DNA of 64,000 bases. Source: an uncultured Verrucomicrobiota bacterium. Its GTDB lineage: Bacteria; Verrucomicrobiota; Kiritimatiellia; JAAZAB01. The stretch is taken from assembly GCA_964617825.1 (NCBI GenBank), contig CAZTWL010000009.1, forward strand, positions 11,011-75,010, in the 5' to 3' direction. The notes below the pieces were generated by a model that saw nothing but the letters and a program-made list of their open reading frames with translations, did not search any database and was not told the origin of the DNA. Made by a program: the position numbers and the translations under genes. Shown here piece by piece: positions 42,907 to 63,657 of the stretch. Position 1 is the first letter of the stretch. Every line of letters begins with the position of its first letter.

Positions 42907-44997
42907 CTATTTGGCGGAACCGGTATATTGCAGGATTAACATGGAGTACTGGTCCAGCCTTTCAAGCCGGAAAGCAATGGAGTTCTTCGCGGTCCGGCAC
43001 GGGACGGGGGATTCTTCCGGCGCAAGCAAAAGCCGCTTGGCACGAATGCCGGTCGGCAGGTTCACTCGCACCTTAATGTCGAAAAGCGGCGCCGGCGGCA
43101 GGTCGGCCGGCAGATTGAGCACGCTGATTATCAACCGCCTTTTATCAGGCTGATCGAAGACCGTGATCTCGGTTGTTGCCGGGGCATTGGTTTCGATTAT
43201 TTTCTTTTTGCCGAGCAGGGAAAGAAAGATCCCGGCCAGAATTTCTCGATGCGCGTCGAAGCCCATGTCTTCAAGTTTCCCGGCGACATAGATCGCTTCG
43301 CCTTTCCCGAATTTGTGCCGGATGGCGGCGGGCGACTTTTCCCAGATCATCGGCGGATTGCTGATCGCCGAGCCGAATCGGACAACCTCTTCCCTGCCCG
43401 AGCAAGGCAATGCCAATGTTCCGAGCACCTCCGCGTCGGGCTCCGCGTCCAAAATAATCTGCGGCCCGTCCAGCATCACCGGATGCGCCCGGGTAAAGAA
43501 ATCATTGAACATTGATTTCTCCGTCGGGCTGATATAGGTCAGAGGGAGCGTCTTGCCTCGGTAATGGATACCGAACATCTCCGCCAACTTGAAATCGCCG
43601 CGGAAACCTTTTTCCGGATCGTAGAGCGAAGTGTGATAGGAAGCGAAAACCTTTCCGCCGTTGCGCACATATTCCGCGAGGGCTTCGCATTCTTCATCCG
43701 CAAGGCGCGAGGCGTCGCTCACGATCAGCAGCGGATACTTGCCCAGGTCCTTGGTTCTGTTCGTGGCAAAAGTGAAAAGCAGATGCTTCCCGGAAAGCGT
43801 TTTGACTATATTGCGGCGCGGCATCCAGTGTTTGGAATCCGCCTCGCTGCGCTTTTCCACCGGCCGCGGACTGTCGATGTCAACCTGCGAATCCGTATTG
43901 AAATAAATCGCCGCATCCGCGAGGGGCACGGAAGATCCGTCAATATATTTCTCGTACTTGCGGTAGGCGGCGTTGATGGAATGCGCATGTTCATAAAACC
44001 GGCGGTCGAGCGTGCCGAAGGGATCGATGGCGTCGATCAGCGTGAAAGACGCCTGGTTCGCCAACGCGGCGTAAGCACGCATTAGCAGGTTGATGTAGCT
44101 GCGCTCCGTGGTGTGATGAAGCAGTGTTTCACACCGCGGAGTCATGAACTCCATCGGGCGGTTTTTGGAAAAGGCGCCGAACATCTTGCACACCGCAGAC
44201 TGCTCAATGCTGTCTCCGGTAAAATCACCCGCCAAAAAGTCGCTGCTTGATAAAAAATCGAGGTTCATGGCGCCGCCCCATCCGACAACAATGCTTGCAG
44301 ACTGCAGCGTCACGGTCCTATCCGGGGTGCGTTTTTTGACTGTTGCGACGATCTTGCGCCCAAATTCCGTCAACCAGCGTTCACGGCAGGATTCATATGC
44401 CAGCCAGCATGGATCGTTCCAGTCGATAAAACGCGGGATTTCGTTGTAGACCGATTCCTTGCGGAACCTTGCCGTGCATTCCGGGCAGTAACAGACCTTG
44501 GAAAACCATCCGATCATATCGATCCACAGCCCAACGCCGTCATAGCGCGAATTCAATTCATCAAGTTCCTGCAGAAACATCTTGCCGAACCCGCGGTTAA
44601 AGCAGCAAAGCCCGAAACGGGTATTTTGATGTTCGCGGTTGCCCGCGCCGTCTTCCAGAATCATGCGCCATTCAGGATGGGCGTCATAGCCGGCGCGACA
44701 CCAGACATTCAGGTAAAGCTGCACGGCAATGCCGGCTTTTTTGCAGGCTTTGATCGTAGCGCCCAGGATATCGCGGCCTTTCAGTTGCTTGTGCGGGAAC
44801 CCGACTTTCGTGGGCCAATAGCACAGCCCCAGGCAGGAACCGGCGTATATTTCCGCCACCGTGATATTGGCCAGCTTCATCATCTCCGCATATCTGGCCG
44901 GGGAAAAATCACGCAGGAGGCGGCCATCCCAGTCGGGAATATGCATATCCACAAGAATCCTGCGGAGATTTTTTTCGAACCACTTTTGGGATGCCAT
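42907..44997 (-). CDS. putative glycoside-hydrolase-like TIM-barrel protein (GH42/GHL6-like) with a C-terminal beta-sandwich region
   Basis: RRILVDMHIPDWD motif. ATG 44997 with an AAGGA upstream. 696 aa. Confidence 0.6.
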   Translation of the reverse strand: MASQKWFEKNLRRILVDMHIPDWDGRLLRDFSPARYAEMMKLANITVAEIYAGSCLGLCYWPTKVGFPHKQLKGRDILGATIKACKKAGIAVQLYLNVWCRAGYDAHPEWRMILEDGAGNREHQNTRFGLCCFNRGFGKMFLQELDELNSRYDGVGLWIDMIGWFSKVCYCPECTARFRKESVYNEIPRFIDWNDPCWLAYESCRERWLTEFGRKIVATVKKRTPDRTVTLQSASIVVGWGGAMNLDFLSSSDFLAGDFTGDSIEQSAVCKMFGAFSKNRPMEFMTPRCETLLHHTTERSYINLLMRAYAALANQASFTLIDAIDPFGTLDRRFYEHAHSINAAYRKYEKYIDGSSVPLADAAIYFNTDSQVDIDSPRPVEKRSEADSKHWMPRRNIVKTLSGKHLLFTFATNRTKDLGKYPLLIVSDASRLADEECEALAEYVRNGGKVFASYHTSLYDPEKGFRGDFKLAEMFGIHYRGKTLPLTYISPTEKSMFNDFFTRAHPVMLDGPQIILDAEPDAEVLGTLALPCSGREEVVRFGSAISNPPMIWEKSPAAIRHKFGKGEAIYVAGKLEDMGFDAHREILAGIFLSLLGKKKIIETNAPATTEITVFDQPDKRRLIISVLNLPADLPPAPLFDIKVRVNLPTGIRAKRLLLAPEESPVPCRTAKNSIAFRLERLDQYSMLILQYTGSAK

Positions 44998-45164
44998 TTT
45001 TTTATCGTCCTTTGGCAAGGATCCCGAAAAACTCAAATCGACGACCGCGCGCTTTTTCCCGCAATACGCGGCCGCCGCCCCTGGAAGGCGCCAGGTTTTG
45101 AATAGCCAAAGTTTTGCCTGCTCTATCGGCGGAATTTGATTGTTGAGGGACAGCCGCCGGCCGG

Positions 45165-52012: not shown

Positions 52013-53269
52013 ATGATGAGCAGAAAAGCAATCAAAACATCGACACCCCACGCCGACCGGATCCTCCAAGGTCTGCGCCGCTCCTGCCTATGCCGACTGG
52101 CCGCATTCCTCATACCCATGGCTCTCTTTTGCACCTCCGGACAAAGCGCAATTGCGACAGCGGAAGCGGCCGATGAAATCGCCGGCGAGTTGTTGCCCTC
52201 TGACAATTACAAGCATGCGGAGTGTTGGCTTAAACACATGAGCGGCTATGCCGGCCCATTTACGGGCGCCAATCCGTCAACCTCGAAAATCTGCGACGCC
52301 ATCCGCGCTCTGTCCGCCCAGTACAAAGTACCGATCGAAATTATCGGCGCCGTTTGTTTCCAGGAAAGCAGTCTATACCAGTACGGCGCAGATGGGTTTA
52401 TTGTCCATAATCTGGGCGAATGCATATCGTTGTATTATGGCGCCTCTGGCGGTCCGCCGGGACTGGGACTCATGCAGCTGACCGGGACAACGGCCACCAG
52501 CACATTCGATGTGAATCGGCTTATTACGGACTGGCGTTATAACCTGGAAGCGGGGGTCTACGTGTTAAGACATGAATATGACACCTCTTTGGCTTACTAC
52601 CCGCCGGAGATGCAAACCATAACGATTGCAAATTGGAATGTGCTGGAGAATTGGCGTTACGCACTGGCGCGTTACAATAGCTACCAAGATCCGGAGAACC
52701 CCTACGTAGCCGCCGTGTGCAGGCATATCGCCTCCCCTCCCGCGCAACTATCGGGCCTTTTTACCGGAGCGACACTGACCGAGCCGCAAGACGTCATACC
52801 GGAGTTCATCTATGGGAATGGTTATGCCGTCAAGCCTGAGGGCGTCTGGCTATATGCTAATGGCATTGCGTATTACGGGACCGCGCATACCGGAACGATT
52901 GCCGCCAATCCGACAATCAAAGCCAATGGCGTGGAAGGCCAAATTGCCGTCAATTATCCCGCCCCGCTATCCATCACCGTGGCAATGAATGCCGGCGATT
53001 ATGCCGGCCTGAAGGGCGACTGGTGGGTCGTCGCTTGTGCCGGATATACATGGTATTACATGGATGGCGTGAACGGGTGGACGCAGGAGGGCGCTTGGCG
53101 TCCGGCATTCCAAGGCGGATTTTGCAATCTACCCACCACGGAAGTGCTGAACGTATCTAATTTGGGAAAAGGTTCGTATACCTTCTATTTTGCGGTTGAT
53201 TTTATTATGGATGGCATTTTGAACATGGATGCAATTTTATTTAATTCGGTGAATGTCATCGTGCAGTAA
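52013..53269 (+). CDS. secreted lytic-transglycosylase (SLT) domain protein with a C-terminal domain shared with the protease paralog at 14497
   Basis: SLT motifs FQESSLYQY and GLMQL. The last ~108 aa (YPAPLSITVAMNAGDYAG..DWWVV...VIVQ) match the C-terminus of the 14497..15927 protein. Confidence 0.7.
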   Translation: MMSRKAIKTSTPHADRILQGLRRSCLCRLAAFLIPMALFCTSGQSAIATAEAADEIAGELLPSDNYKHAECWLKHMSGYAGPFTGANPSTSKICDAIRALSAQYKVPIEIIGAVCFQESSLYQYGADGFIVHNLGECISLYYGASGGPPGLGLMQLTGTTATSTFDVNRLITDWRYNLEAGVYVLRHEYDTSLAYYPPEMQTITIANWNVLENWRYALARYNSYQDPENPYVAAVCRHIASPPAQLSGLFTGATLTEPQDVIPEFIYGNGYAVKPEGVWLYANGIAYYGTAHTGTIAANPTIKANGVEGQIAVNYPAPLSITVAMNAGDYAGLKGDWWVVACAGYTWYYMDGVNGWTQEGAWRPAFQGGFCNLPTTEVLNVSNLGKGSYTFYFAVDFIMDGILNMDAILFNSVNVIVQ

Positions 53270-53547
53270 GATCGCATGCATCACGCCGGGCCACCGCCAA
53301 AAGGCCAAGACACCATACGCTGGACCTGAGATGAAGTCTGACGGCAGACGGCGGATCGGATCGAGGTGTATATGGAGTGAAAGCCAGTAAAACTCTCTGG
53401 GCTACAGCGAGCGAGACCAAGGCTTAGTCCGTTACGGCCACACACAAGCCTTATTCTTTATTCGAAGGGCTAAGTCCCGTTCCCCACATGAAGAATTTGA
53501 ATGTTATTTCATGCCTTGAACTAATGCGCAAATTAACGGGAGACAAC

Positions 53548-55998
53548 ATGATGACTAGGCTGATGTCAGGGTTTGTGTTGGCAAGTATAATGGTTTTATG
53601 CATTCCGGCCAGAGGTTTTGATGTGGTCAAAGACGGCAGTCCGCAATGTTCCATCGTGCTGTCGCCCAGAGCCAGCCCAAGCGAGAGGCTTGCGGCCGAG
53701 GAGTTGGCGGCCTATGTGAAAAAGATGTCCGGGGCAACGTTGCCGGCGATGGCCGAAAACACGAAAAACGGCATTATCATCGGTACGCTGGGAAGTCTGA
53801 CGAATATTCCTGTAACAGCCAGGGAACGGCTGAAAGCCTGCAATTCCGACGAGGCCTTCTATATCCGGAGCGAGGGCGATAATCTCTTTATCATCGGCAA
53901 GCAACCGATCGGCGCTTTGTATGGCACGTATACCTTGCTGGAGGACTATATGGGCGTACGCTGGTTTTATCCGGGCGAATTGGGGGAATACTGCCCTGCG
54001 ATAAAAACGATGGCATTGCCGATAATCGATGATTTCCAAAAACCCGCCATGGCCACCCGGACAGGGCTCCCCAATGCACCCTACGATAGCGCAATCTGGT
54101 GTGCCCGGCAGAAAATTCAACTGATGAATGTCGTTCCCACCTCAAAATGGTTTGATGGAAAAGCCTGCGCGAAAGAGCGGTCTGAGTTTCTTAATCAAGC
54201 GCTCAACACGCATGCCATGCAGGGAGGACATCCGACTTTCATAATGGCCGTGCCCGACGCGTTGTTTAAGGAGCATCCCGAATATTTCGTGCTGAGAGAC
54301 GGCGAACGCAAGCTCGGCGGACACGCAGGGGGTTTCCAACGGTGCGTATCCAATCCTGACGTGTTCAAGCTGGTGGCCGAGTACATTCTGAAATGGTGCA
54401 ATGAAAACCCGGACAACGTATTTTTAATTTGTTCCGCCGACAATAAGGATGGATGGTGCCAGTGCGAGGAATGCAAAAAAATGGGGACGGTTGACGGAAC
54501 ATACAAGAACACCAACCTGTTTCACCGATTTTTTTCCAATGTCCTTGGCTATGTTCTGGAACGCAATCCCGATGCGCGGGTTGATGTCAGGTTCTATGTC
54601 GACCGGGGCATCGCCCCCGATGACAAGACCATCCAGTACAGGGGGAAAAATGTGCGCGGCGTTTATTGCACGTGTTGGCCACACACACGCTGCTATGCGC
54701 ATAATTTCACTGACCCGAACTGCGCGTTCAATAGAAAATGCCTGGAGGACTTGAAGGGTGTGCTGAAGATATGCCCTCGTATTTACACGTATGAATATAT
54801 CGAGACTTCCGATGTTCCCTACGCTCCCTTGGATAAAACCCTGGCGCAGGACATCAAGGACCTGGCAGCGATACAGGTCGAGGGGTTCATGAACTCTACG
54901 CATGCCCCGAACTCCAAGGCCGCCCACCGCCCCGCTGCGCCGTATGTTTGGCAAGCCCGATGGGCTTCAATTTATCTCACATCCAAACTGCATTGGAACA
55001 CCAAGCTGGATCCGGAAAAGATCATGGACGATGCCTACGATAAATATTACGGCAAGGCGGCGCCGGCTATGAAAAAGTACCAGGCGTTGCGCATGAAATT
55101 ATGGGAAAGCGCCCCCGGGCATGCCTTCTATGGCGGCCCAAAACGCACGGCCTATTGCCTGACGGTTCCAGGAGCGGAGGAGGAGCTGCGGTCGGATCTT
55201 GCCGCAGCCAAAAAGCTGGCTGGGGATGACATGCTGGTTCTTGCGCGTATCGATCTGGATGAGAAGTTCCTGAACATGTTCTGGAAGGCGCCCGCCGAGG
55301 AACTGAAGAAAAGGCATTCCGCGGAAATGCAGATTCTTCCCGAGCGCGTTCGCGGAGCCATCGTCATCGACGGCGATTTGTCGGAGGAAACCTGGCTGTC
55401 TGCCCGCCCGGTAACAGGGTTTCTTAAAGTGCATACCGACCAACCGCCCTCGGAGGACAGCAATTTCCGCGTGGCCTATGATGATGCCAACCTGTATATC
55501 GGCTTCGTGGCGATGAACAACAAGGCATGGAGCCCCGAGACCGCCAAGGCACAGAAGCGCGACGCCGGGGAACTGGGCCAGGATGACCACATCCAACTGC
55601 AGTTCGCCCCGCCCGACAACGGCGACCGTTTTTACCATATCATCCTCAACACCAAGGGCGTGCTCTATGACTCGACAATCGTTGGGCAGGACAGTGACCT
55701 GAGTTATGATTCTCAGGCCGAGGTCAAGGTCAAAAAGCTCGCTGACCGTTTCGTTTATGAGATCCGCCTGCCTTTGGCGCCGATGAAGGGAGATGTGTCG
55801 CCGGGAAAAGTCTGGGGAATGTATGCCTTTCGAAGAAGCAAGAACCTTCAGCCGCCCGAGGACAAGGAGGATAGTGCGCTGGACGGGATCACGCCTCACC
55901 GGGTGATGGAGTTCAGGCAGGCCGTTTTCGGCGAGAATGTTGTCAAAAACGGCAATTTTGCCGACCGCGACGAAAAAAAAAAGAAAACCGGGGAATAA
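53548..55998 (+). CDS. secreted DUF4838-like glycoside-hydrolase-family protein with a CBM9-like domain
   Basis: Signal peptide. The N-terminal layout is typical of DUF4838 hydrolases. A CBM9-like block ETWLSARPVTGF...YDDANLYIGF is present. ATG 53548. Confidence 0.7.
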   Translation: MMTRLMSGFVLASIMVLCIPARGFDVVKDGSPQCSIVLSPRASPSERLAAEELAAYVKKMSGATLPAMAENTKNGIIIGTLGSLTNIPVTARERLKACNSDEAFYIRSEGDNLFIIGKQPIGALYGTYTLLEDYMGVRWFYPGELGEYCPAIKTMALPIIDDFQKPAMATRTGLPNAPYDSAIWCARQKIQLMNVVPTSKWFDGKACAKERSEFLNQALNTHAMQGGHPTFIMAVPDALFKEHPEYFVLRDGERKLGGHAGGFQRCVSNPDVFKLVAEYILKWCNENPDNVFLICSADNKDGWCQCEECKKMGTVDGTYKNTNLFHRFFSNVLGYVLERNPDARVDVRFYVDRGIAPDDKTIQYRGKNVRGVYCTCWPHTRCYAHNFTDPNCAFNRKCLEDLKGVLKICPRIYTYEYIETSDVPYAPLDKTLAQDIKDLAAIQVEGFMNSTHAPNSKAAHRPAAPYVWQARWASIYLTSKLHWNTKLDPEKIMDDAYDKYYGKAAPAMKKYQALRMKLWESAPGHAFYGGPKRTAYCLTVPGAEEELRSDLAAAKKLAGDDMLVLARIDLDEKFLNMFWKAPAEELKKRHSAEMQILPERVRGAIVIDGDLSEETWLSARPVTGFLKVHTDQPPSEDSNFRVAYDDANLYIGFVAMNNKAWSPETAKAQKRDAGELGQDDHIQLQFAPPDNGDRFYHIILNTKGVLYDSTIVGQDSDLSYDSQAEVKVKKLADRFVYEIRLPLAPMKGDVSPGKVWGMYAFRRSKNLQPPEDKEDSALDGITPHRVMEFRQAVFGENVVKNGNFADRDEKKKKTGE

Positions 55999-56022
55999 CC
56001 AACGGCCCAGCCCTCCGGTATT
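55977..56022 (+). other. candidate -1 programmed frameshift cassette: in-phase slippery heptamer A_AAA_AAG (55977-55983) plus a downstream stem (ACCGGGG / CCCTCCGGT)
   Basis: The heptamer is identical to the E. coli dnaX site. It is phased with the 53548 reading frame, and the -1 frame stays open for 145 codons. The A-run 55973-55982 could alternatively reflect a homopolymer indel. Confidence 0.3.
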
Positions 56023-56048
56023 GGAACGTTAACGCGCAAGAATGTGAA

Positions 56049-56417
56049 GTGCTCGAAGAATGTTCTCAGCCTTCCCGGTTGAGGCTTAAGAACGGTTTGA
56101 TTTACACCTTTCTCAGCATTCCTGCAGAGAATCAAAGCCGGACATTAGTCGGCGAGATTCATGCCTCCGGTTCTGGTAAACTCTCGATCCGGATTAGCAG
56201 CTGCTTGAGGCCGCCCGACAGCAAGGAAAAGGCGTTTTCGCATTCAATTAAAAAAGAAATCGGCCCTTTTGTGCTGACCCCGGAACCATTGCGGCTAAAG
56301 TTCGCAGTCGATATCGACCCTTATGAACAGGGATACCTTTATGTTCGTGTAGACGGCGAGGCCTTCATCAACCACATCAGCGGAGTGCTCGTCGAAAAAC
56401 AAAAAAAACGGGTTTAA
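56049..56417 (+). CDS. open -1-frame continuation of the gene at 53548..55998 (beta-sandwich-like 122+ aa); it has no ribosome-binding site of its own
   Basis: The frame is continuous back through the A-run. Its only start is GTG, with no Shine-Dalgarno. The composition matches the upstream gene. Confidence 0.35.
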   Translation: MLEECSQPSRLRLKNGLIYTFLSIPAENQSRTLVGEIHASGSGKLSIRISSCLRPPDSKEKAFSHSIKKEIGPFVLTPEPLRLKFAVDIDPYEQGYLYVRVDGEAFINHISGVLVEKQKKRV

Positions 56418-56556
56418 AGAAAACAACAATTTGCCTGGACGTGAAGTCGCCTGTGCAAATCAAGATTTCTGATCGTTGCTTTCCCGTGTTGTGAAAATTG
56501 AGAAGACGTTGCGGTCCCCCACGCGAATAAATTGCTCTTTTTTCAAAAGAGCAAAC

Positions 56557-58329
56557 TTACCGGAATCGGGCTGTCAGCTCACCCAGTGCGCTTTGATACA
56601 CGTCCCGGGGGGAGATGTTTTGCGCATGGCAGATGGAAGCTGCAGTGCCCACGACCTCGCCCATCATTCCGCATGTGCGCATGACACGAACCGGCCCTAA
56701 TGCGTCGTGAGTCACGCTGATACATCGGCCACCCATGAAGAGATTGCCGATACGCCGCGAATACAGGCATCGGTAGGGCATGAAATAGGGCGGGTTGAAA
56801 CACTCCTTCCCGTCGCTACAGATAAAAGCGTCGCCTTCGGCGTAAGCCGGGTAGTATTTGCGGTTGGGTGTGTGCAGATCAAGCCCCCATACGATGCCGA
56901 CGATGCCGTCATCGTATGGGATCGACTGCAACAGATCCTGCTTTGTCAAAACGAGGTCACCCAGCAGACGGCGGGATTCCCGTTTGCCCGAAATATGCGC
57001 AGAATATGCGATCTTGTATTGTTGAAAATCGCGATCGATATTTTTCATGGCATCCCACGCGCCGTACATGGCGCGGAAATTCGTGTCGCGGGCGTATTCC
57101 GCCTTTTGAATGGGGTGATGCTCAAAGCCCGCGCCCCAGTACCAGCAGCCGATATTTCGTGCAGCCTTCTTTTCGCCGTCCGGATTCGTGCCGCCCGCCC
57201 GCAGCCGTTCGGGGAACTCGGGTTCGGTCAGATCGATTGCCCACGGACAGCGAGGGAAGGATGTGTTCGCGCCGGTATCCTCGATTGCCCAGAAGTTGGA
57301 TAGCTCCATATGTCCGGAAGTCGTCATTTCGTAGTCCGCTCCGCTTAAATATCCCAGTGTGCCGTCGCCCGTGCAGTCCGCGAACAGCGGCGCGGCAATT
57401 CGGAGGCTGCGGCAAGAGCGGATATCCATCAGTGTCACGCTGCGGATAATGCCGCCGTCGACTTCCGCGCCGGTCACGGCAAAGCCTGTATATAAGGTGA
57501 GATTCGTTTCGCTTTGGAGGATGCGTAATTTGGCGTTGTCTTTGTAATTTTCCGCGCGGTTGGCAATCCCAAAAATATCCCGTGCCTGCTGCTCAAACTC
57601 CTGAGTAACCAAGCCCAGCTTCGAAAACGGCGCCAAGCAGAGTTTGCCGCTGAGCCAAACACGCACCTCGGAACTGTTGTTGCCTCCGTAGACTGGACGA
57701 TCATGCACGAGCGCCGTTTTCAGACCGGCGCGGGATGCGGTGACGGCGCAGGCCATCCCGGTAATGCCGCCGCCCGCAACGATCAGGTCATAAGTGCCTG
57801 TGATAGTCTGGGTTTCATCCAGCCCGTTAGCGGTACGCAGTGCTGCTAACACCGAAGGATCGCTGTCCGGTATGAAATCCAAATTGCGCGTCAGTAAAAT
57901 GCCGCCACAGCGTCCTTCAAAGCCCGTCAGATCATGCAGCGCGATCTCCGCGTCGCCCGCCATAAGCGATAAAACACCGCCGTCCTGCCAGTGCCAATCC
58001 GCGCCGTTCTCTCCGAATACAGGCTCGCAAAAACGTCCGTTGATGCGCAGGCGAAACACGCCCGGGGCGTACGCGGGCTTCCAGGGTGCGACCCAGTTGC
58101 GCGTGTATACCCATATGCGGTATTGTGCGGGCTTCTGTATCCGGATTCGGGTAGCTGCGTCGGCCACCGGAGTGCCCAGTCCGTGGGCCAGAAGATAGGG
58201 TGTGCCGCATGTGTCAATGAATTGGGAGTCGTTGAGCCATCCGCCTGTATCCTCGAACGCGGTCGGTGCAAGGTATATCCCGGTAGTATCGTTCATGTCC
58301 GTCATTGTCCTCTCGTATTTATAAACCAA
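56557..58329 (-). CDS. FAD-dependent oxidoreductase (PF12831-like, typical of CAZyme loci)
   Basis: FAD-binding motif DLIVAGGGITGMACA near residue 165. 590 aa. Confidence 0.8.
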   Translation of the reverse strand: MVYKYERTMTDMNDTTGIYLAPTAFEDTGGWLNDSQFIDTCGTPYLLAHGLGTPVADAATRIRIQKPAQYRIWVYTRNWVAPWKPAYAPGVFRLRINGRFCEPVFGENGADWHWQDGGVLSLMAGDAEIALHDLTGFEGRCGGILLTRNLDFIPDSDPSVLAALRTANGLDETQTITGTYDLIVAGGGITGMACAVTASRAGLKTALVHDRPVYGGNNSSEVRVWLSGKLCLAPFSKLGLVTQEFEQQARDIFGIANRAENYKDNAKLRILQSETNLTLYTGFAVTGAEVDGGIIRSVTLMDIRSCRSLRIAAPLFADCTGDGTLGYLSGADYEMTTSGHMELSNFWAIEDTGANTSFPRCPWAIDLTEPEFPERLRAGGTNPDGEKKAARNIGCWYWGAGFEHHPIQKAEYARDTNFRAMYGAWDAMKNIDRDFQQYKIAYSAHISGKRESRRLLGDLVLTKQDLLQSIPYDDGIVGIVWGLDLHTPNRKYYPAYAEGDAFICSDGKECFNPPYFMPYRCLYSRRIGNLFMGGRCISVTHDALGPVRVMRTCGMMGEVVGTAASICHAQNISPRDVYQSALGELTARFR

Positions 58330-58810: not shown

Positions 58811-60994
58811 TCAATCGATGATTTTGGCATTTCTGAATGCAGCCATCAGTTTATTCTTATTTATTTTGCTGGTTTTTAAATATCGACGGTTCCCGACGGG
58901 TAATATTGCGCCAGCTCCTTTTTGGCCATCAAGAACCTGACCTTTCTGTCCCAAACTCTCCAACAATATTAAATCCCTGGATTTAAAGGGAAGTTCAAGC
59001 TTTTTATTGGCGGATATGTGCCAGTACACCACATAAAGATCGTGATGCCTTTCGAAGGTAAAAGCGATCACTTCCTTGCTCCCATTGGCAACATTCGTGA
59101 TCCGATCATAGGGAACTAATTCGAATTTATTCTTTTCGTTCAGTAAAAGGGTATACTCCTGATCGGCATCGCGCAGCATTTGTTTCTGTTTATCAGTCAG
59201 CCATTTCTTGGCCCTGACTTCTTCCCAGCGCCTGAAGACCTCGAAATTATCGGCGGTTCTCGGGTGCTGCGCCAAGATTGCAGGATCAGCATGGATCGCA
59301 ACCGGACAATCCCATGCCGCGGCCTTGCTGGTTACAAACTCCAACTGGTCCGGTTGCGTTCCGATGGTTTTTTCGCCTGGGATCCAGTAACCTAACCAGC
59401 CGAAATTAAGGCGGGTGAAATTATCCCGCATCCTGGGCGCTTCCCTAAAGGGATGATTGATCGTTTCTGCCTTGAGCTTTTCGGGCGGGAAAACATCGAA
59501 CGCATTGCCGCCTGTCAGCATATGCCAACCGAAATGGGTTTTTGCCGCTCCCTCTGCGAAGATCGGTTCCGGTTTAAGTTTGCTGAACACACGGTACTGT
59601 GCGCCGGACACATGATACCAGAAAGGAGGATTAACGCCTTCCGATCCGTCAAAATAGAAAAACTCAAATCCCGCATCCCAGAGATCGGCAATTCCGTCGG
59701 CCACTTCATCCTGGAGGTCCGAATATTGATCGATATAAACGCTCGTTGCGCCAAATTCACTTACGTCCAGCAATCCGAACATGAAACCGGCAGGCTGGGC
59801 GCCTATTGTTGTTCCGTCGATGCCACGCTCGCAGCCGAAAAACGTATAGGGCGGCGTAGCGGTGTAACCGCGATACGAAATTAACTCCGTTCCTATTTTC
59901 AACACCATCCTGTTCCGGGCCATCGTCGAGTTTCCAGGATTTTGCTCGACATGAATTGTGGTGTCATTCTTTTCGAGAGGCTCAGCCAGGGTAAATATCC
60001 GCAAGAGATTCAGCCGGTGATCGGGTGTTGGGGTAACATACTTGCTATCCCTCCCAATGTGACTATGGAGAAAATGGCAACCGGGCGTAATGCCGGCGTT
60101 TTTAATTTTGGCCAGCATCGCTTTCAGATCGGCTTTGCCGTTCGGATATTCCCGACGGTAGCCATCGTAATTTCCGATGAGCCGGTAACCCCGGCTTTCG
60201 AGAAAAGCCGGATAATAAATGTTCATGAGCCTGAATCCGCCCATCTTGGCATATTTTATATGTTCATCGACATTGGTCGGATTAACAGCGGCTGTCCAGT
60301 AATATGACGCATTGTATAGCGCATGTCTGCGGCTGGCCACGCCATGGGGCAATTTATAATCTTTTTCAACGGCGGCGATCTTGTCCAGCAGTTTGTCCGT
60401 TGCACAAGTTATTAACGCCGCGGTAACTCCCGTAAGTTTGATCTTCTCATCCACGCCGGCCTGCAAGATCCGGTAGCCCTCGCCTTCTTCCGAATCGGCA
60501 TTTGCGCACGGTTCTGCCGCAAGTACATTAACGGCCACCTTGTCATTCCACATCACATTCAACCAGTCGCCCCAATGGCCAAGGTTGCGGACGGGCAATC
60601 GCAGGAACCACATTTCGGATATGGGAGGCTCAGTCATGGCAATGCCATAATCCTCGGTCAGCGTGAATGCCTCCAAAGTAAATGCGATATAATCCGCAGT
60701 AATCTTCAGGCCGACGGTGGCTTCCCACGGAATCAGTTCATAGCCGATAATCAACTTGTCCCCTTCCCGGCGGACCGCATTGGACTTGAACGTGGTCTTT
60801 TTATTGGGATATGCCAGTTTAACCTCGTTCTGGTAGGGACGCGGCTCGGTTATGGAACTGAGGGGAACATTCTTCCGCTGTATTAAACATTCGGTATTGG
60901 TTGGCTTAAACAGCAAACTTTTGACAATCCCACCGCTGGTAATGACCAGTTTGGTCTGTTTATTCTCAATGATTACATCTTTCATCCTGCTCAT
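58811..60994 (-). CDS. large uncharacterised putative glycoside-hydrolase-like protein; low-GC paralog of the gene at 2543..5365
   Basis: ATG 60994 with a GGAG 8 nt upstream. Blocks VTPTPDHRLN..FTLAEPL and WDAGFEFFYFDGSEG are shared with the 2543 gene. GC is visibly lower (~47-50%). Confidence 0.7.
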   Translation of the reverse strand: MSRMKDVIIENKQTKLVITSGGIVKSLLFKPTNTECLIQRKNVPLSSITEPRPYQNEVKLAYPNKKTTFKSNAVRREGDKLIIGYELIPWEATVGLKITADYIAFTLEAFTLTEDYGIAMTEPPISEMWFLRLPVRNLGHWGDWLNVMWNDKVAVNVLAAEPCANADSEEGEGYRILQAGVDEKIKLTGVTAALITCATDKLLDKIAAVEKDYKLPHGVASRRHALYNASYYWTAAVNPTNVDEHIKYAKMGGFRLMNIYYPAFLESRGYRLIGNYDGYRREYPNGKADLKAMLAKIKNAGITPGCHFLHSHIGRDSKYVTPTPDHRLNLLRIFTLAEPLEKNDTTIHVEQNPGNSTMARNRMVLKIGTELISYRGYTATPPYTFFGCERGIDGTTIGAQPAGFMFGLLDVSEFGATSVYIDQYSDLQDEVADGIADLWDAGFEFFYFDGSEGVNPPFWYHVSGAQYRVFSKLKPEPIFAEGAAKTHFGWHMLTGGNAFDVFPPEKLKAETINHPFREAPRMRDNFTRLNFGWLGYWIPGEKTIGTQPDQLEFVTSKAAAWDCPVAIHADPAILAQHPRTADNFEVFRRWEEVRAKKWLTDKQKQMLRDADQEYTLLLNEKNKFELVPYDRITNVANGSKEVIAFTFERHHDLYVVYWHISANKKLELPFKSRDLILLESLGQKGQVLDGQKGAGAILPVGNRRYLKTSKINKNKLMAAFRNAKIID

Positions 60995-61311
60995 GGTTAG
61001 CTCCGGAATAAAAAAGCATTTGCAAAACAACGGCGCTTTGTTCCCGCCGTCACCGGCGCGGCTAACAAGCGCTGACTTTTCCTGGCATCGAATGCCGGGA
61101 GAAGGCACCGGTCGAGCCGAAGGCGATTTGCAACAACGCCAGCATTTCCTAATCTTCAGCGCTCAGTGACGCACCTAAATCCCATCGACCGTCACCGCCT
61201 GCCTTACGCAATAACATTGTGACGGAATGTAACAAGGTGCGCCAGAAAACGCCAGCGCAAAACCGATGGCAAACGGCAATGAGGGTTGGTCGCCAAGGGA
61301 ATAGCGCACCC

Positions 61312-63657
61312 CTATCCTATCCGGCAAGTCGCCTCAGGAAAGTTTTTGGAAACTGCCTTGAGGGTTATGCCTTCCGGCCGATTCACCTTCAGGACAAAGG
61401 AGGCGATTCCGACTTCGAAACAACGCTCCGTATCGCCAATTATCACGGCATTTTCGCCGCAGGCGGCAAGCGCGACTTTTGTCGTGTTGTCGGTCACCGG
61501 CGTGCCGTTCCGGTCAACAAGGGCAACATCGACAAAAACAACATCGTTCCGGCAGAGCGGCACGCCTTCATCCCTGACGGTTATCGCCAGGCGGACAGGT
61601 GTTCCCGGCGTGTGGATCACATGTTCGGCAGCCTTTTTTCCGCCAATGTAACCGACAGCCTTGAGTTCGCCTTTCTCCTCCGGCAGGTTGGTAAAGGTAT
61701 AGGGAGGATGCGGCAGATATTCGCAATTGCCGCCATCGTGGGTATCGATTTTCATACCATCGAGCTCCCACGGACGCAGGACGGTCTCCCAATTCGGATT
61801 GCCGGTCGTGTGATAGGAGGTGAGCTTGCCGTTATCCGGCCCGCGGCGCTTAATGAGCCTGCCGTTCAGGAAAAGCTCGATCTCGTCGCAGTTCGAGAAG
61901 ATAACGACCTTGTTCAGGATCTCCTCGCGCCGGGAGGCGATATAAACCATCGGCTCTTTGCCGTTCTGGCTCTGGAAAAAATAATATTTATATTTTGGAA
62001 CGCGGAAAAGCGATCCGTCGCCGCATTCGCATTGATTGGCGCGGAAGCCATTGTTGTAATCAAACATGCACCAGGTGCAACCGCCGATATAGCCGGGCTC
62101 GGTCGACATCTTGTTGAGGGACCACTGATAATTCCAAGCCTGACGGAGCAGTTCGTACTCCCCATCCCGACGCGAACGGCGCGAAGTGCTCTTGCCGCCG
62201 CCGAATGCCCAGTCGCCATATTCGCGGACGATCACCGCCTTGGTCTTGCAATCGAGCTTGGTGCGATTGAAGAGCACGTCCCAGCCCTCGTAGAGTCCAT
62301 AAACGTCGCCGCAGGTAAAGCATTGGTCCCCGGGATATTCGCGGTGGGCAATCCTGTGCATTTCCTCCGGCAGCCACGCGGGCGGATAGGTCTCGTTCAG
62401 GGATACTTCCCAGAGAATGATGCTCGGGCGGTTGCGTTCGTTGCGGATGAGTTCGCGACAGTCGCGGTAGACGTTGTTGATGAAGGTGGAGTTATTGCTG
62501 AAATGCTGCCAGCCGGGCACAGGCGCCATGATGCAGAGGCCGAGTTCGTCGCAGGCATCGAGAAGAGCCGGATGCTGGGTGTAATGCGCCAGACGTATGA
62601 GGTTATACCCGGCCCTTTTCATGATCATTGCGTCGCGCCGCTGCATCGCAGCGGGCGCCGCGTTACCAAGGTGGGGATAGTCCTGGTGATGGTTGGTGCC
62701 TTGGATATAAAGTTTTTCGCCGTTGATTTCGATCCCGTTTTCACGGGTAATACGGACCCGACGGATGCCATAGCGGAAAGTCTGCGACTCAACCTCGTGC
62801 TCGCCGTCGAAAAGGGTCACTTTAACCCGGTACAGGCTGGGGTGATCCGGATGCCATAGCTTCGGTGCGGGTACGTTGATCTCGCAGGCATAGGTCTGGT
62901 CACAATTCGGACGGATGCTTGTTCTGTACTCAAGGGGCGTTATCGCTGCGGTCCCATCCGGGGCAAACAGTTCTATTCTGAGTTGTACCGGATAGATTTT
63001 ATCGGCTTTCTGCGGCAGATTCCAGATCTCTTCACCCAGCACCTGGCGCAGGATATGCACCTGGCAGCCGAGTGTTGCGCTCTGGGCGCCGATCGCAAGC
63101 GTCCGCATAAAGATGCCGCCCCCGGCTTCAACATTAACCTCGAGCGGATCGGTGATATGGAGCTTCTCCTTGATCGTGAGGCGCGCCGACCGGTAGATGC
63201 CGCTGTAATAGCAAAAGTCAACGGATTCAAGCGGATTTCCCGGAGGCATGTCGTCCGTCGGCCGATTATCCAGGCGCAAGGCGATGATATTGGTCTCGCC
63301 GATCTCAAGTTTCTGGGTTAACGGAACGATAAAACGCTGGTAGCCGCCCTGGTGCGTGAAAAAATAACGGCCGTTCAGATATATTTCCGTTTTCTGCATG
63401 GCGCCATCGAGTTCGAGCCATACGATCTTGTCGGCCCACTCTTTTTCGGCAAAAACCGGGAGGCGGTACCAGCAACAGCCCTGCCAATGGTTTTGGGCAT
63501 TGCAGGTCTCGGGCTCGATATGCGCGCAATGGGGAAGGTTAATGCGTTCCCAGGAAGTGTCGTCCAATGTCGGCGACGCGGCAATTTCGGGGCGCAAGTC
63601 TTCGAATTTGAAATGCCAGCCGGCATCAAGAGTGTCTAGATCGATCTGCTTGAACAT
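61312..63657 (-). CDS. glycoside hydrolase family 2 (beta-galactosidase / beta-mannosidase-like)
   Basis: GH2 sugar-binding, Ig-like and TIM-barrel order. Motifs NLIRLAHYTQHP and ILWEVSLNE (acid/base region) are present. 781 aa. Confidence 0.85.
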   Translation of the reverse strand: MFKQIDLDTLDAGWHFKFEDLRPEIAASPTLDDTSWERINLPHCAHIEPETCNAQNHWQGCCWYRLPVFAEKEWADKIVWLELDGAMQKTEIYLNGRYFFTHQGGYQRFIVPLTQKLEIGETNIIALRLDNRPTDDMPPGNPLESVDFCYYSGIYRSARLTIKEKLHITDPLEVNVEAGGGIFMRTLAIGAQSATLGCQVHILRQVLGEEIWNLPQKADKIYPVQLRIELFAPDGTAAITPLEYRTSIRPNCDQTYACEINVPAPKLWHPDHPSLYRVKVTLFDGEHEVESQTFRYGIRRVRITRENGIEINGEKLYIQGTNHHQDYPHLGNAAPAAMQRRDAMIMKRAGYNLIRLAHYTQHPALLDACDELGLCIMAPVPGWQHFSNNSTFINNVYRDCRELIRNERNRPSIILWEVSLNETYPPAWLPEEMHRIAHREYPGDQCFTCGDVYGLYEGWDVLFNRTKLDCKTKAVIVREYGDWAFGGGKSTSRRSRRDGEYELLRQAWNYQWSLNKMSTEPGYIGGCTWCMFDYNNGFRANQCECGDGSLFRVPKYKYYFFQSQNGKEPMVYIASRREEILNKVVIFSNCDEIELFLNGRLIKRRGPDNGKLTSYHTTGNPNWETVLRPWELDGMKIDTHDGGNCEYLPHPPYTFTNLPEEKGELKAVGYIGGKKAAEHVIHTPGTPVRLAITVRDEGVPLCRNDVVFVDVALVDRNGTPVTDNTTKVALAACGENAVIIGDTERCFEVGIASFVLKVNRPEGITLKAVSKNFPEATCRIG

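Follow-up and report, generated by a model that had tools for sequence, protein, structure and literature searches.

The window analysed here is a stretch of 64,000 nucleotides (nt) from an uncultured Verrucomicrobiota bacterium of the Kiritimatiellia (contig CAZTWL010000009.1, positions 11,011 to 75,010). It carries a gene, beginning at 53548, that by its sequence encodes a secreted glycoside hydrolase of the DUF4838 type (GH163/GH185 type), and a run of ten adenines (A10) lies near the 3' end of this gene at 55973-55982. Recoding of one kind or the other at A10 is very likely. The tract is probably a programmed recoding site for which transcriptional slippage is the main route, with some help from −1 ribosomal slippage possible, and the cell most likely produces the enzyme in two forms, of which one has the final, sugar-binding-like domain and the other lacks it. 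Frameshifting or transcriptional slippage yielding two C-terminal variants had been proposed in an earlier note on this DNA, and conservation of the tract in 12 sequences strongly supports that idea. Judged by comparison, this is a real, conserved recoding site of a kind already known, at a locus new to that kind.

The tract starts at codon position 2 (GAA AAA AAA AAG), and the 0-frame codons around it read GAC GAA AAA AAA AAG AAA ACC GGG GAA TAA. The earlier note had reported an A_AAA_AAG heptamer in phase, an early end of the 0-frame after the tract and an open −1 frame of about 145 residues, and all three were borne out (Table 1). The −1 frame runs for 144 codons from 55983 and its translation is ENRGITNGPALRYWNV...EKQKKRV*. 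It encodes most of a C-terminal jelly-roll domain, and this extension is confined to the long isoform (956 amino acids, aa). The likely start of the upstream open reading frame (ORF) is the ATG at 53548 (MMTRLMSGFVL..., signal-peptide-like), and the N-termini of the orthologs L005 and L006 align to MMTRLMSGFVL... (L and P numbers denote related sequences). An alternative ATG upstream, at 53488, would give a short form of 836 aa. No database record was found for the exact 836-aa ORF protein; the locus was found through homologs and the called downstream fragment P0015. A terminator scan gave no terminator-like element from the 0-frame stop to 56417; the extension should therefore share the transcript of the upstream ORF.

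Domain searches of the upstream ORF gave DUF4838 (PF16126) at 2.5e-34 (119.3 bits, gathering cut-off 26.6) and the GH67N/GH20b-like N-terminal domain GH67N at 2.3e-9 (37.9 bits, cut-off 24.3); background on the DUF4838 and GH163/GH185 families is given in PMC10570127. The gene had been described as DUF4838/CBM9. The DUF4838 part of that description stands at 119 bits, whereas CBM9_1 (PF06452) gave only a sub-threshold match (E = 3.3e-4, 21.0 bits, gathering score 23.4) and was also weak in homologs. The C-terminal domain has a CBM4/CBM22-like beta-jelly-roll fold, similar to solved carbohydrate-binding modules (CBMs). No Pfam family was found for this domain at E <= 0.05 in any of 12 members, with the extension alone or fused, and no relative of the enzyme sequence was found in the PDB.

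Homologs with a fused ORF were sought, as the earlier note had asked, and the more distant homologs are single ORFs. In these relatives the GH67N-like, DUF4838, CBM9-like and C-terminal jelly-roll parts lie in one ORF without an A run (L015, L009, the Victivallales sequences L007-L014 and L017/L018, and P0029-P0060), with a final domain of ~150 aa. Single-ORF homologs of ~800-980 aa are the norm, and many of them are present in a library of 1.84 billion representatives. The closest in-frame relative is P0032, for which a look-up gave no database record. The ancestral architecture would end in a CBM-like jelly-roll domain of ~150 aa. In the alignment, invariant N, G and F residues were found upstream of the tract in frame 0, and invariant W, G, G, G and H residues downstream in the shifted frame. 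Invariant residues flank the tract in both frames, which places it within the domain, in the loop that follows strand 1. On this alignment the two frames encode one protein and one domain.

A search with the conceptually fused C-terminus yielded three metagenomic homologs (51-73% identity). They end at the same place right after the run of lysines (K-run), and their DNA has A10 in the same codon phase. The set was enlarged by scans of GTDB genomes and JGI metagenomes, by a profile search and by contig look-ups, finally giving twelve non-identical sequences with 45-70% aa identity (the window, L001, L002, L003, L004, L005, L006, L021, L023, L024, L025 and L026). Exactly A10 was present at the same codon position in 12/12. 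The same holds for three replicates, obtained from other samples or with other assemblers (L016 = L006, L020 = window, L022 = L021), so that 15/15 assemblies have A10 with zero length polymorphism. A Logan contig of SRR8925806 is identical to the window. All named sources are metagenome-assembled genomes (MAGs) of Lentisphaerota or Kiritimatiellia. The heptamer A_AAA_AAG is in phase in 11/12 sequences, and L003 has A_AAA_AAC; the whole A10 is kept, not the heptamer alone.

Apart from the A10 site, no homopolymer of at least 9 bases occurs in 172.6 kb of sequence (window and related loci), and every clade member has the run at this same position. The run had been called unusual for a genome of more than 60% GC. 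The window has ~57% GC (0.51-0.62 in 2-kb bins) and ~54% locally, and the run taken alone is unremarkable: dinucleotide shuffles average 1.4 A9 matches per window. One run of A9 or longer per 64 kb fits this expectation, so A10 in a single window is not significant alone, and its significance comes from the comparison with relatives. Orthologs that always end at the equivalent of 55998 with unrelated sequence downstream had been named as one refuting result. The orthologs do end there, but the downstream sequence is homologous, and recoding was not refuted. In a neighbour-joining tree (no bootstrap) all A10 sequences form one clade with L003 basal, and the fused, tract-less L015 is nested inside. 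Because of this nesting L015 was taken as a secondary reversion, and L004 likewise as secondary.

The same A10 occurs with all three frame relations, and the frames are split in 11/12 of the A10 sequences. The domain is in the −1 frame in 10/12, and in all ten the 0-frame stop ends exactly 16 nt past the tract. The identity of this stop varies (TAA, TGA or TAG) at a single position, and it is embedded in overlapping-frame codons that are locally rare: TTA (1/40 Leu in L001, 1/93 in L006), ATA (7/51, 14%) and GTA (3/17 and 10/60, 17-18%). L003 has the domain in the +1 frame; there the 0-frame stop ends 13 nt past the tract, and the −1 frame stops after two codons. In L004 the domain is in frame through a 1-nt insertion between the tract and a relic TGA. 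No single tract length would fuse all members, since fusion would take A9 or A12 in L003, A10 in L004 and A11 in all others. Mutation can readily fuse the frames and has done so (L004, L015), yet ten lineages still keep the split and a precisely placed stop. The 0-frame stop is maintained. In L004 (3664-5115, Kiritimatiellae MAG) the ORF also continues past the jelly-roll for ~340 aa more, resembling a calcineurin-type metallophosphoesterase (GDNTY...GNHD), and the continuation may be a true fusion or a second anomaly, of frame or of stop.

Selection on the shifted frame was estimated from pairwise comparisons within the clade. Synonymous sites are saturated (synonymous divergence, pS, 0.50-0.98), and non-synonymous divergence (pN) in the shifted ORF is 0.16-0.46, with dN/dS of 0.10-0.43 where computable. 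The extension is translated and constrained, as pN is low against the saturated pS. In all complete sequences the shifted ORF stays open as far as the usual end of the domain. The tract includes three synonymous A/G choices, which do not vary in the clade despite saturation; for seven sequences, with codon usage taken from each gene itself, the joint probability of xAA AAA AAA for the given amino acids is ~1.4e-9. The protein itself does not require the K-run, because in-frame relatives lack it: none is present at the equivalent linker in L015, L009, P0032 or the Victivallales sequences, and the linkers of in-frame relatives are unrelated (SDVAPATNAL, ILEPVKEDQ, ELVAKTSDNT, AELSKQKIGG). Two distant single-ORF homologs, P0067 (~748-775; TAPKKKKARN) and P0035 (~807-830; EKYKKKING), have in-frame K-runs at the equivalent linker after NGNF.

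The proposed mechanism is as follows. Standard decoding would give a precursor of 816 aa that ends in KTGE and lacks the last domain. RNA polymerase slipping on the T10 template would add one non-templated A to a set fraction of the transcripts (in L003 the equivalent event would be one A fewer or two more), and translation of the slipped transcripts would give the full-length precursor of 956 aa with a full jelly-roll. Slippage of tRNA-Lys by −1 on A_AAA_AAG of the unedited mRNA may add the same product. Both routes give the identical junction peptide ...DEKKK-ENRGITNG..., which the earlier note had predicted correctly. Since selection keeps the arrangement, the arrangement would fix the isoform ratio.

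Functional slippage has been recognised by the same ORF organisation and run in two or more non-identical homologs (Baranov et al., 2005; PMC1088944), a number that the present set exceeds. The run has at least 9 bases and lies at the junction of overlapping ORFs, and the trans-frame product is homologous to single-ORF proteins, as is required of slippage at A/T runs. Every sequence-level feature of utilised transcriptional slippage was found at the locus. RNA polymerase slippage is favoured over ribosomal slippage by the keeping of the whole A10, by L003 and L004, by the lack of stimulators and by precedents in other systems. The three frame relations point the same way, because polymerase slippage yields a ladder of tract lengths and a −1 ribosomal shift does not.

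A purely translational origin, with dnaX-type −1 programmed ribosomal frameshifting on A_AAA_AAG of an ordinary A10 mRNA, was judged unlikely. The heptamer has the right phase in 11/12 sequences, and 10/12 have the extension in the −1 frame; A_AAA_AAG is a classic, highly shift-prone motif of E. coli (PMC1851650; PMC5009743), and the product would equal that of an A11 mRNA. Stimulatory elements of such a shift were not found, and two features by which a dnaX-type cassette is defined are missing at the locus. The stem proposed in the earlier note (55987-55993 with 56011-56019) is present in the minimum-energy fold (−12.2 kcal/mol), but it does not fold better than chance (z = +0.57; 141/200 shuffles fold at least as well). 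RNAalifold on six orthologs gave no conserved downstream structure (−1.95 kcal/mol, with a 4-bp helix broken in 2/6), and among seven single-sequence folds only L004, the in-frame member, folds unusually well (z = −4.1). No conserved upstream or internal Shine-Dalgarno (SD) sequence was seen in the ortholog alignments, in which the 15 nt upstream vary. A search of Rfam at E <= 10 gave no DnaX or insertion sequence (IS) frameshift element and one spurious match to a long non-coding RNA. The tRNA-Lys repertoire was also sought, as a guide to how readily AAG shifts, and the window contains no tRNA genes. Further evidence against a ribosomal origin comes from the four 5' A's beyond the heptamer, which are invariant despite saturated synonymous sites, and from L004, in which a −1 shift would truncate the protein. 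L003 speaks against the dnaX type too, because a −1 ribosomal shift cannot supply the +1/−2 that it needs. The label 'dnaX-type' was accordingly not retained. Ribosome 'sliding' on poly(A) was treated as a minor third mechanism, because in E. coli it is robust only from A11, with little at A9 or A10 (PMC4363877).

Phase variation at the DNA level, in which tract length would switch the C-terminal domain ON (A11 or A8) or OFF (A10) in subpopulations, had been raised in the earlier note together with a sequencing indel, and both are disfavoured by the exact A10 of the 12 sequences and 3 replicates. A10 runs are mutable, and minor alleles are invisible in consensus assemblies, which were the data used. 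Phase variation is nevertheless improbable: the replicates come from different samples, and no fused A11-type protein of the clade was found among 5.8 billion proteins and 1.84 billion representatives. In addition, the in-frame L004 retained A10 and changed a base outside the tract, and a permanently OFF genotype would not hold the extension under purifying selection. Artefact or decay, meaning either a normal single ORF misread at the homopolymer during sequencing or assembly, or a gene that has recently become a pseudogene, can be set aside almost entirely: homopolymers are error-prone on some platforms and annotation pipelines predict two genes from the two pieces, but the same A10 recurs in assemblies made independently (JGI, ENA, NCBI MAGs, Logan), no one corrected length would fuse all members, and the split has outlasted divergence down to an aa identity of 45%, at a dN/dS well under 1. 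Separate translation of the downstream ORF as a small protein, by reinitiation or coupling at the overlapping stop, is just as improbable: a GTG or TTG overlaps the 0-frame stop in four members (GTGA/TTGA), gene callers predict ORFs of 106-138 aa and stand-alone domain copies exist in Victivallales, but the first 60 shifted codons of L001 and L003 contain none of ATG, GTG and TTG, the other members share no conserved start or SD, and the product would lack the signal peptide and the first strand (invariant NGxF), both of which the genuine stand-alone copies have.

Some points weigh against programmed recoding led by polymerase slippage. Slippage itself, its level and the isoform ratio are what we infer. 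The in-phase A_AAA_AAG and its 3' G are kept in 11/12 sequences, and transcriptional slippage alone needs neither, although shared descent and dual coding could explain their conservation. The source of L003, like that of L004, is just one contig from a metagenome or MAG, and L004 has ~4.5x coverage, so that an assembly indel may be present there. The site could also be a 'rescued' frameshift that is tolerated, and not a device selected for making two isoforms.

A stronger form of the slippage reading is put forward tentatively. The invariant A10 may be a selected 'isoform rheostat', at which polymerase slippage sets the ratio of enzyme without the binding module to enzyme with it, and which has been kept clade-wide through −1, +1 and 0 frame relations. 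If so, it would be the first deeply conserved transcriptional-recoding device controlling the modularity of a carbohydrate-active enzyme (CAZyme). The unclassified C-terminal jelly-roll would then have a stoichiometry-sensitive role, for example in tethering, oligomerisation or substrate hand-over, and the sister Victivallales would reach a related end otherwise, by carrying the domain also as a secreted stand-alone copy that lies in tandem and evolves concertedly.

In Victivallales the enzyme is encoded by a single ORF, and ~35 nt beyond this gene lies another that encodes the jelly-roll by itself, as a secreted, stand-alone copy (Table 1). This copy is 90-95% identical to the enzyme domain of its own genome and 77-82% identical to the stand-alone copies of other genomes, which suggests gene conversion or concerted evolution. 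The copies also suggest that dosage or context of the jelly-roll domain matters in the family. The Logan contig protein P0004 matches the Victivallales C-terminal domain up to ...RTNHRRVEDL and is then of low complexity, where L008 and L010 read PKYDLTD...; the divergence looks like a frameshift in the same domain of another lineage, caused by an assembly error or by a real indel.

Several smaller features were noted at the locus. A second A-rich stretch, GAAAAACAAAAAAAAC (A5, C, A8; 56390-56410), encodes EKQKK at the extreme end of the extension before its stop. It was seen only in the window and its replicate L020, and orthologs have other ends. The NGNFA codons (GGCAATTTTGCC) form a small palindrome at 55950-55963 on the minus strand, which the scan flags as a terminator-like site. 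The palindrome is probably incidental, the hairpin not being kept in orthologs. T10 as a minus-strand terminator was dropped; the hairpin is unconserved and neighbouring genes vary between loci. The neighbourhood is rich in glycan-degradation genes of GHL6/GH42M-like, FAD_oxidored-family and GH2 types (42907-45036, 56557-58329 and 61312-63657, all on the minus strand), and the FAD_oxidored-family gene is convergent with the gene of interest. ORFs 52013-53269 (418 aa) and 58811-61108 (765 aa) gave no Pfam match.

Table 1. Coordinates of features at the A10 locus (window positions unless a related sequence is named)
Feature	Position	Strand	Remarks
0-frame ORF, short isoform	53548..55998	+	816 aa from ATG at 53548; domain matches
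Complete C-terminal domain spanning the frameshift site (VFGENVVKNGNF...)	55924..56414	+	N-G-x-F in frame 0; W, G, G, G, H in frame −1
A10 slippery run, proposed slippage site (RNA polymerase A10 to A11 and/or −1 tRNA)	55973..55982	+	same phase in orthologs
A_AAA_AAG heptamer, 0-frame phase	55977..55983	+	could add −1 ribosomal slippage
−1-frame extension, 144 codons and stop (TAA, 56415-56417)	55983..56417	+	purifying selection; homology to C-termini of single-ORF proteins
Candidate stem-loop of the earlier note	55987..56019	+	judged no functional stimulator; z = +0.57, unconserved
0-frame stop TAA, end of short isoform	55996..55998	+	position kept; ends 16 nt past tract
10-bp hairpin between convergent genes	56532..56554	.	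sole terminator-like element downstream
Stand-alone domain gene	L010 4086-4604; L007/L017/L018 4094-4612; L008 3829-4347		own signal peptide; P0006/P0008, 173 aa

Annotation pipelines split or truncate these genes, and the extension is called as a 'hypothetical protein' of 106-138 aa or not called. A domain is therefore missing from the CAZyme inventories made of Lentisphaerota MAGs. For expression of these DUF4838 (GH163/GH185-like) enzymes, both the 816-aa and the 956-aa forms are advisable. The site is unusual in its deep conservation, in the three frame relations with one invariant tract and in splitting a folded domain. A survey of 108 genomes in 2005 gave essentially IS elements only and one candidate cellular gene (PMC1088944). 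Conserved non-mobile bacterial genes that slip on an A run are rare. The later examples tssM, mxiE and spa13 are confined to narrow lineages. The locus adds a deeply conserved case from a little-studied phylum, in an extracellular glycan-degrading enzyme. It also offers a natural experiment, in which the same A10 in three frame relations separates transcriptional from ribosomal mechanisms.

The locus was compared with known systems. No paper on it was found in the literature on slippage, DUF4838 and fucosidase recoding, and no search was aimed at Lentisphaerota. The alpha-L-fucosidase fucA1 of Sulfolobus solfataricus, expressed by −1 frameshifting (PMC1616953), is the one other recoded glycosidase. 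As proposed here, the full-length form of a glycoside hydrolase needs recoding of two −1-overlapping ORFs. Unlike the present case, fucA1 is archaeal and translational and is split within the catalytic protein, so that only the fusion is active, whereas the short form here keeps the catalytic module. Frameshifted genes are rescued at poly(A) tracts in insect endosymbionts such as Blochmannia (PMC3017870). Polymerase infidelity at long A runs restores interrupted frames there and would do so here, but the endosymbiont runs are sporadic and lineage-specific in AT-rich decaying genomes, and here the tract is unique at ~57% GC, clade-wide and accompanied by a positioned stop.

In mechanism and logic, tssM1, mxiE/spa13 and the dnaX of Thermus come closest. 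In dnaX, Thermus thermophilus uses transcriptional slippage on A9 and E. coli uses −1 ribosomal frameshifting on A_AAA_AAG (PMC1088944; PMC5009743). The present locus has the E. coli heptamer in phase and, like Thermus, an A run of at least 9, and the two products likewise have a common N-terminus and differ at the C-terminus. The recoded product would be longer here and is shorter in dnaX, the proteins are unrelated, and the internal SD and 3' stem-loop stimulators of E. coli dnaX are absent, which leaves the heptamer as the only common feature with that gene. In Shigella flexneri, transcriptional slippage was described for mxiE and spa13, with an efficiency of ~25-30% in spa13 (PMC1088944; PMC5009743). 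There too slippage fuses two overlapping ORFs into a longer functional product, but these are plasmid-borne virulence genes (with a U run in the mRNA of mxiE), and here A10 is in a CAZyme and inside a folded domain. Transcripts of the A11 run in Citrobacter rodentium tssM1 carry 10-15 A's, with a frame restoration of ~20%, and neither isoform is dispensable (PMC4256274). Like tssM1, and tssM of Yersinia pseudotuberculosis, the present gene is chromosomal and non-mobile, with a poly-A run shortly before a premature stop, a C-terminal domain in another frame, no SD or structure signals, and a longer form of two that would need slippage. The run is A10 here, not A11, and the stop ends 16 nt past it, against 28 nt downstream in tssM1. 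The product here is a predicted secreted glycosidase and that of tssM1 a secretion-system component, and slippage was measured in tssM1 and is read from sequence here. Conservation is much deeper at the present locus than in tssM1, with 12 sequences down to 45% identity and three frame relations.

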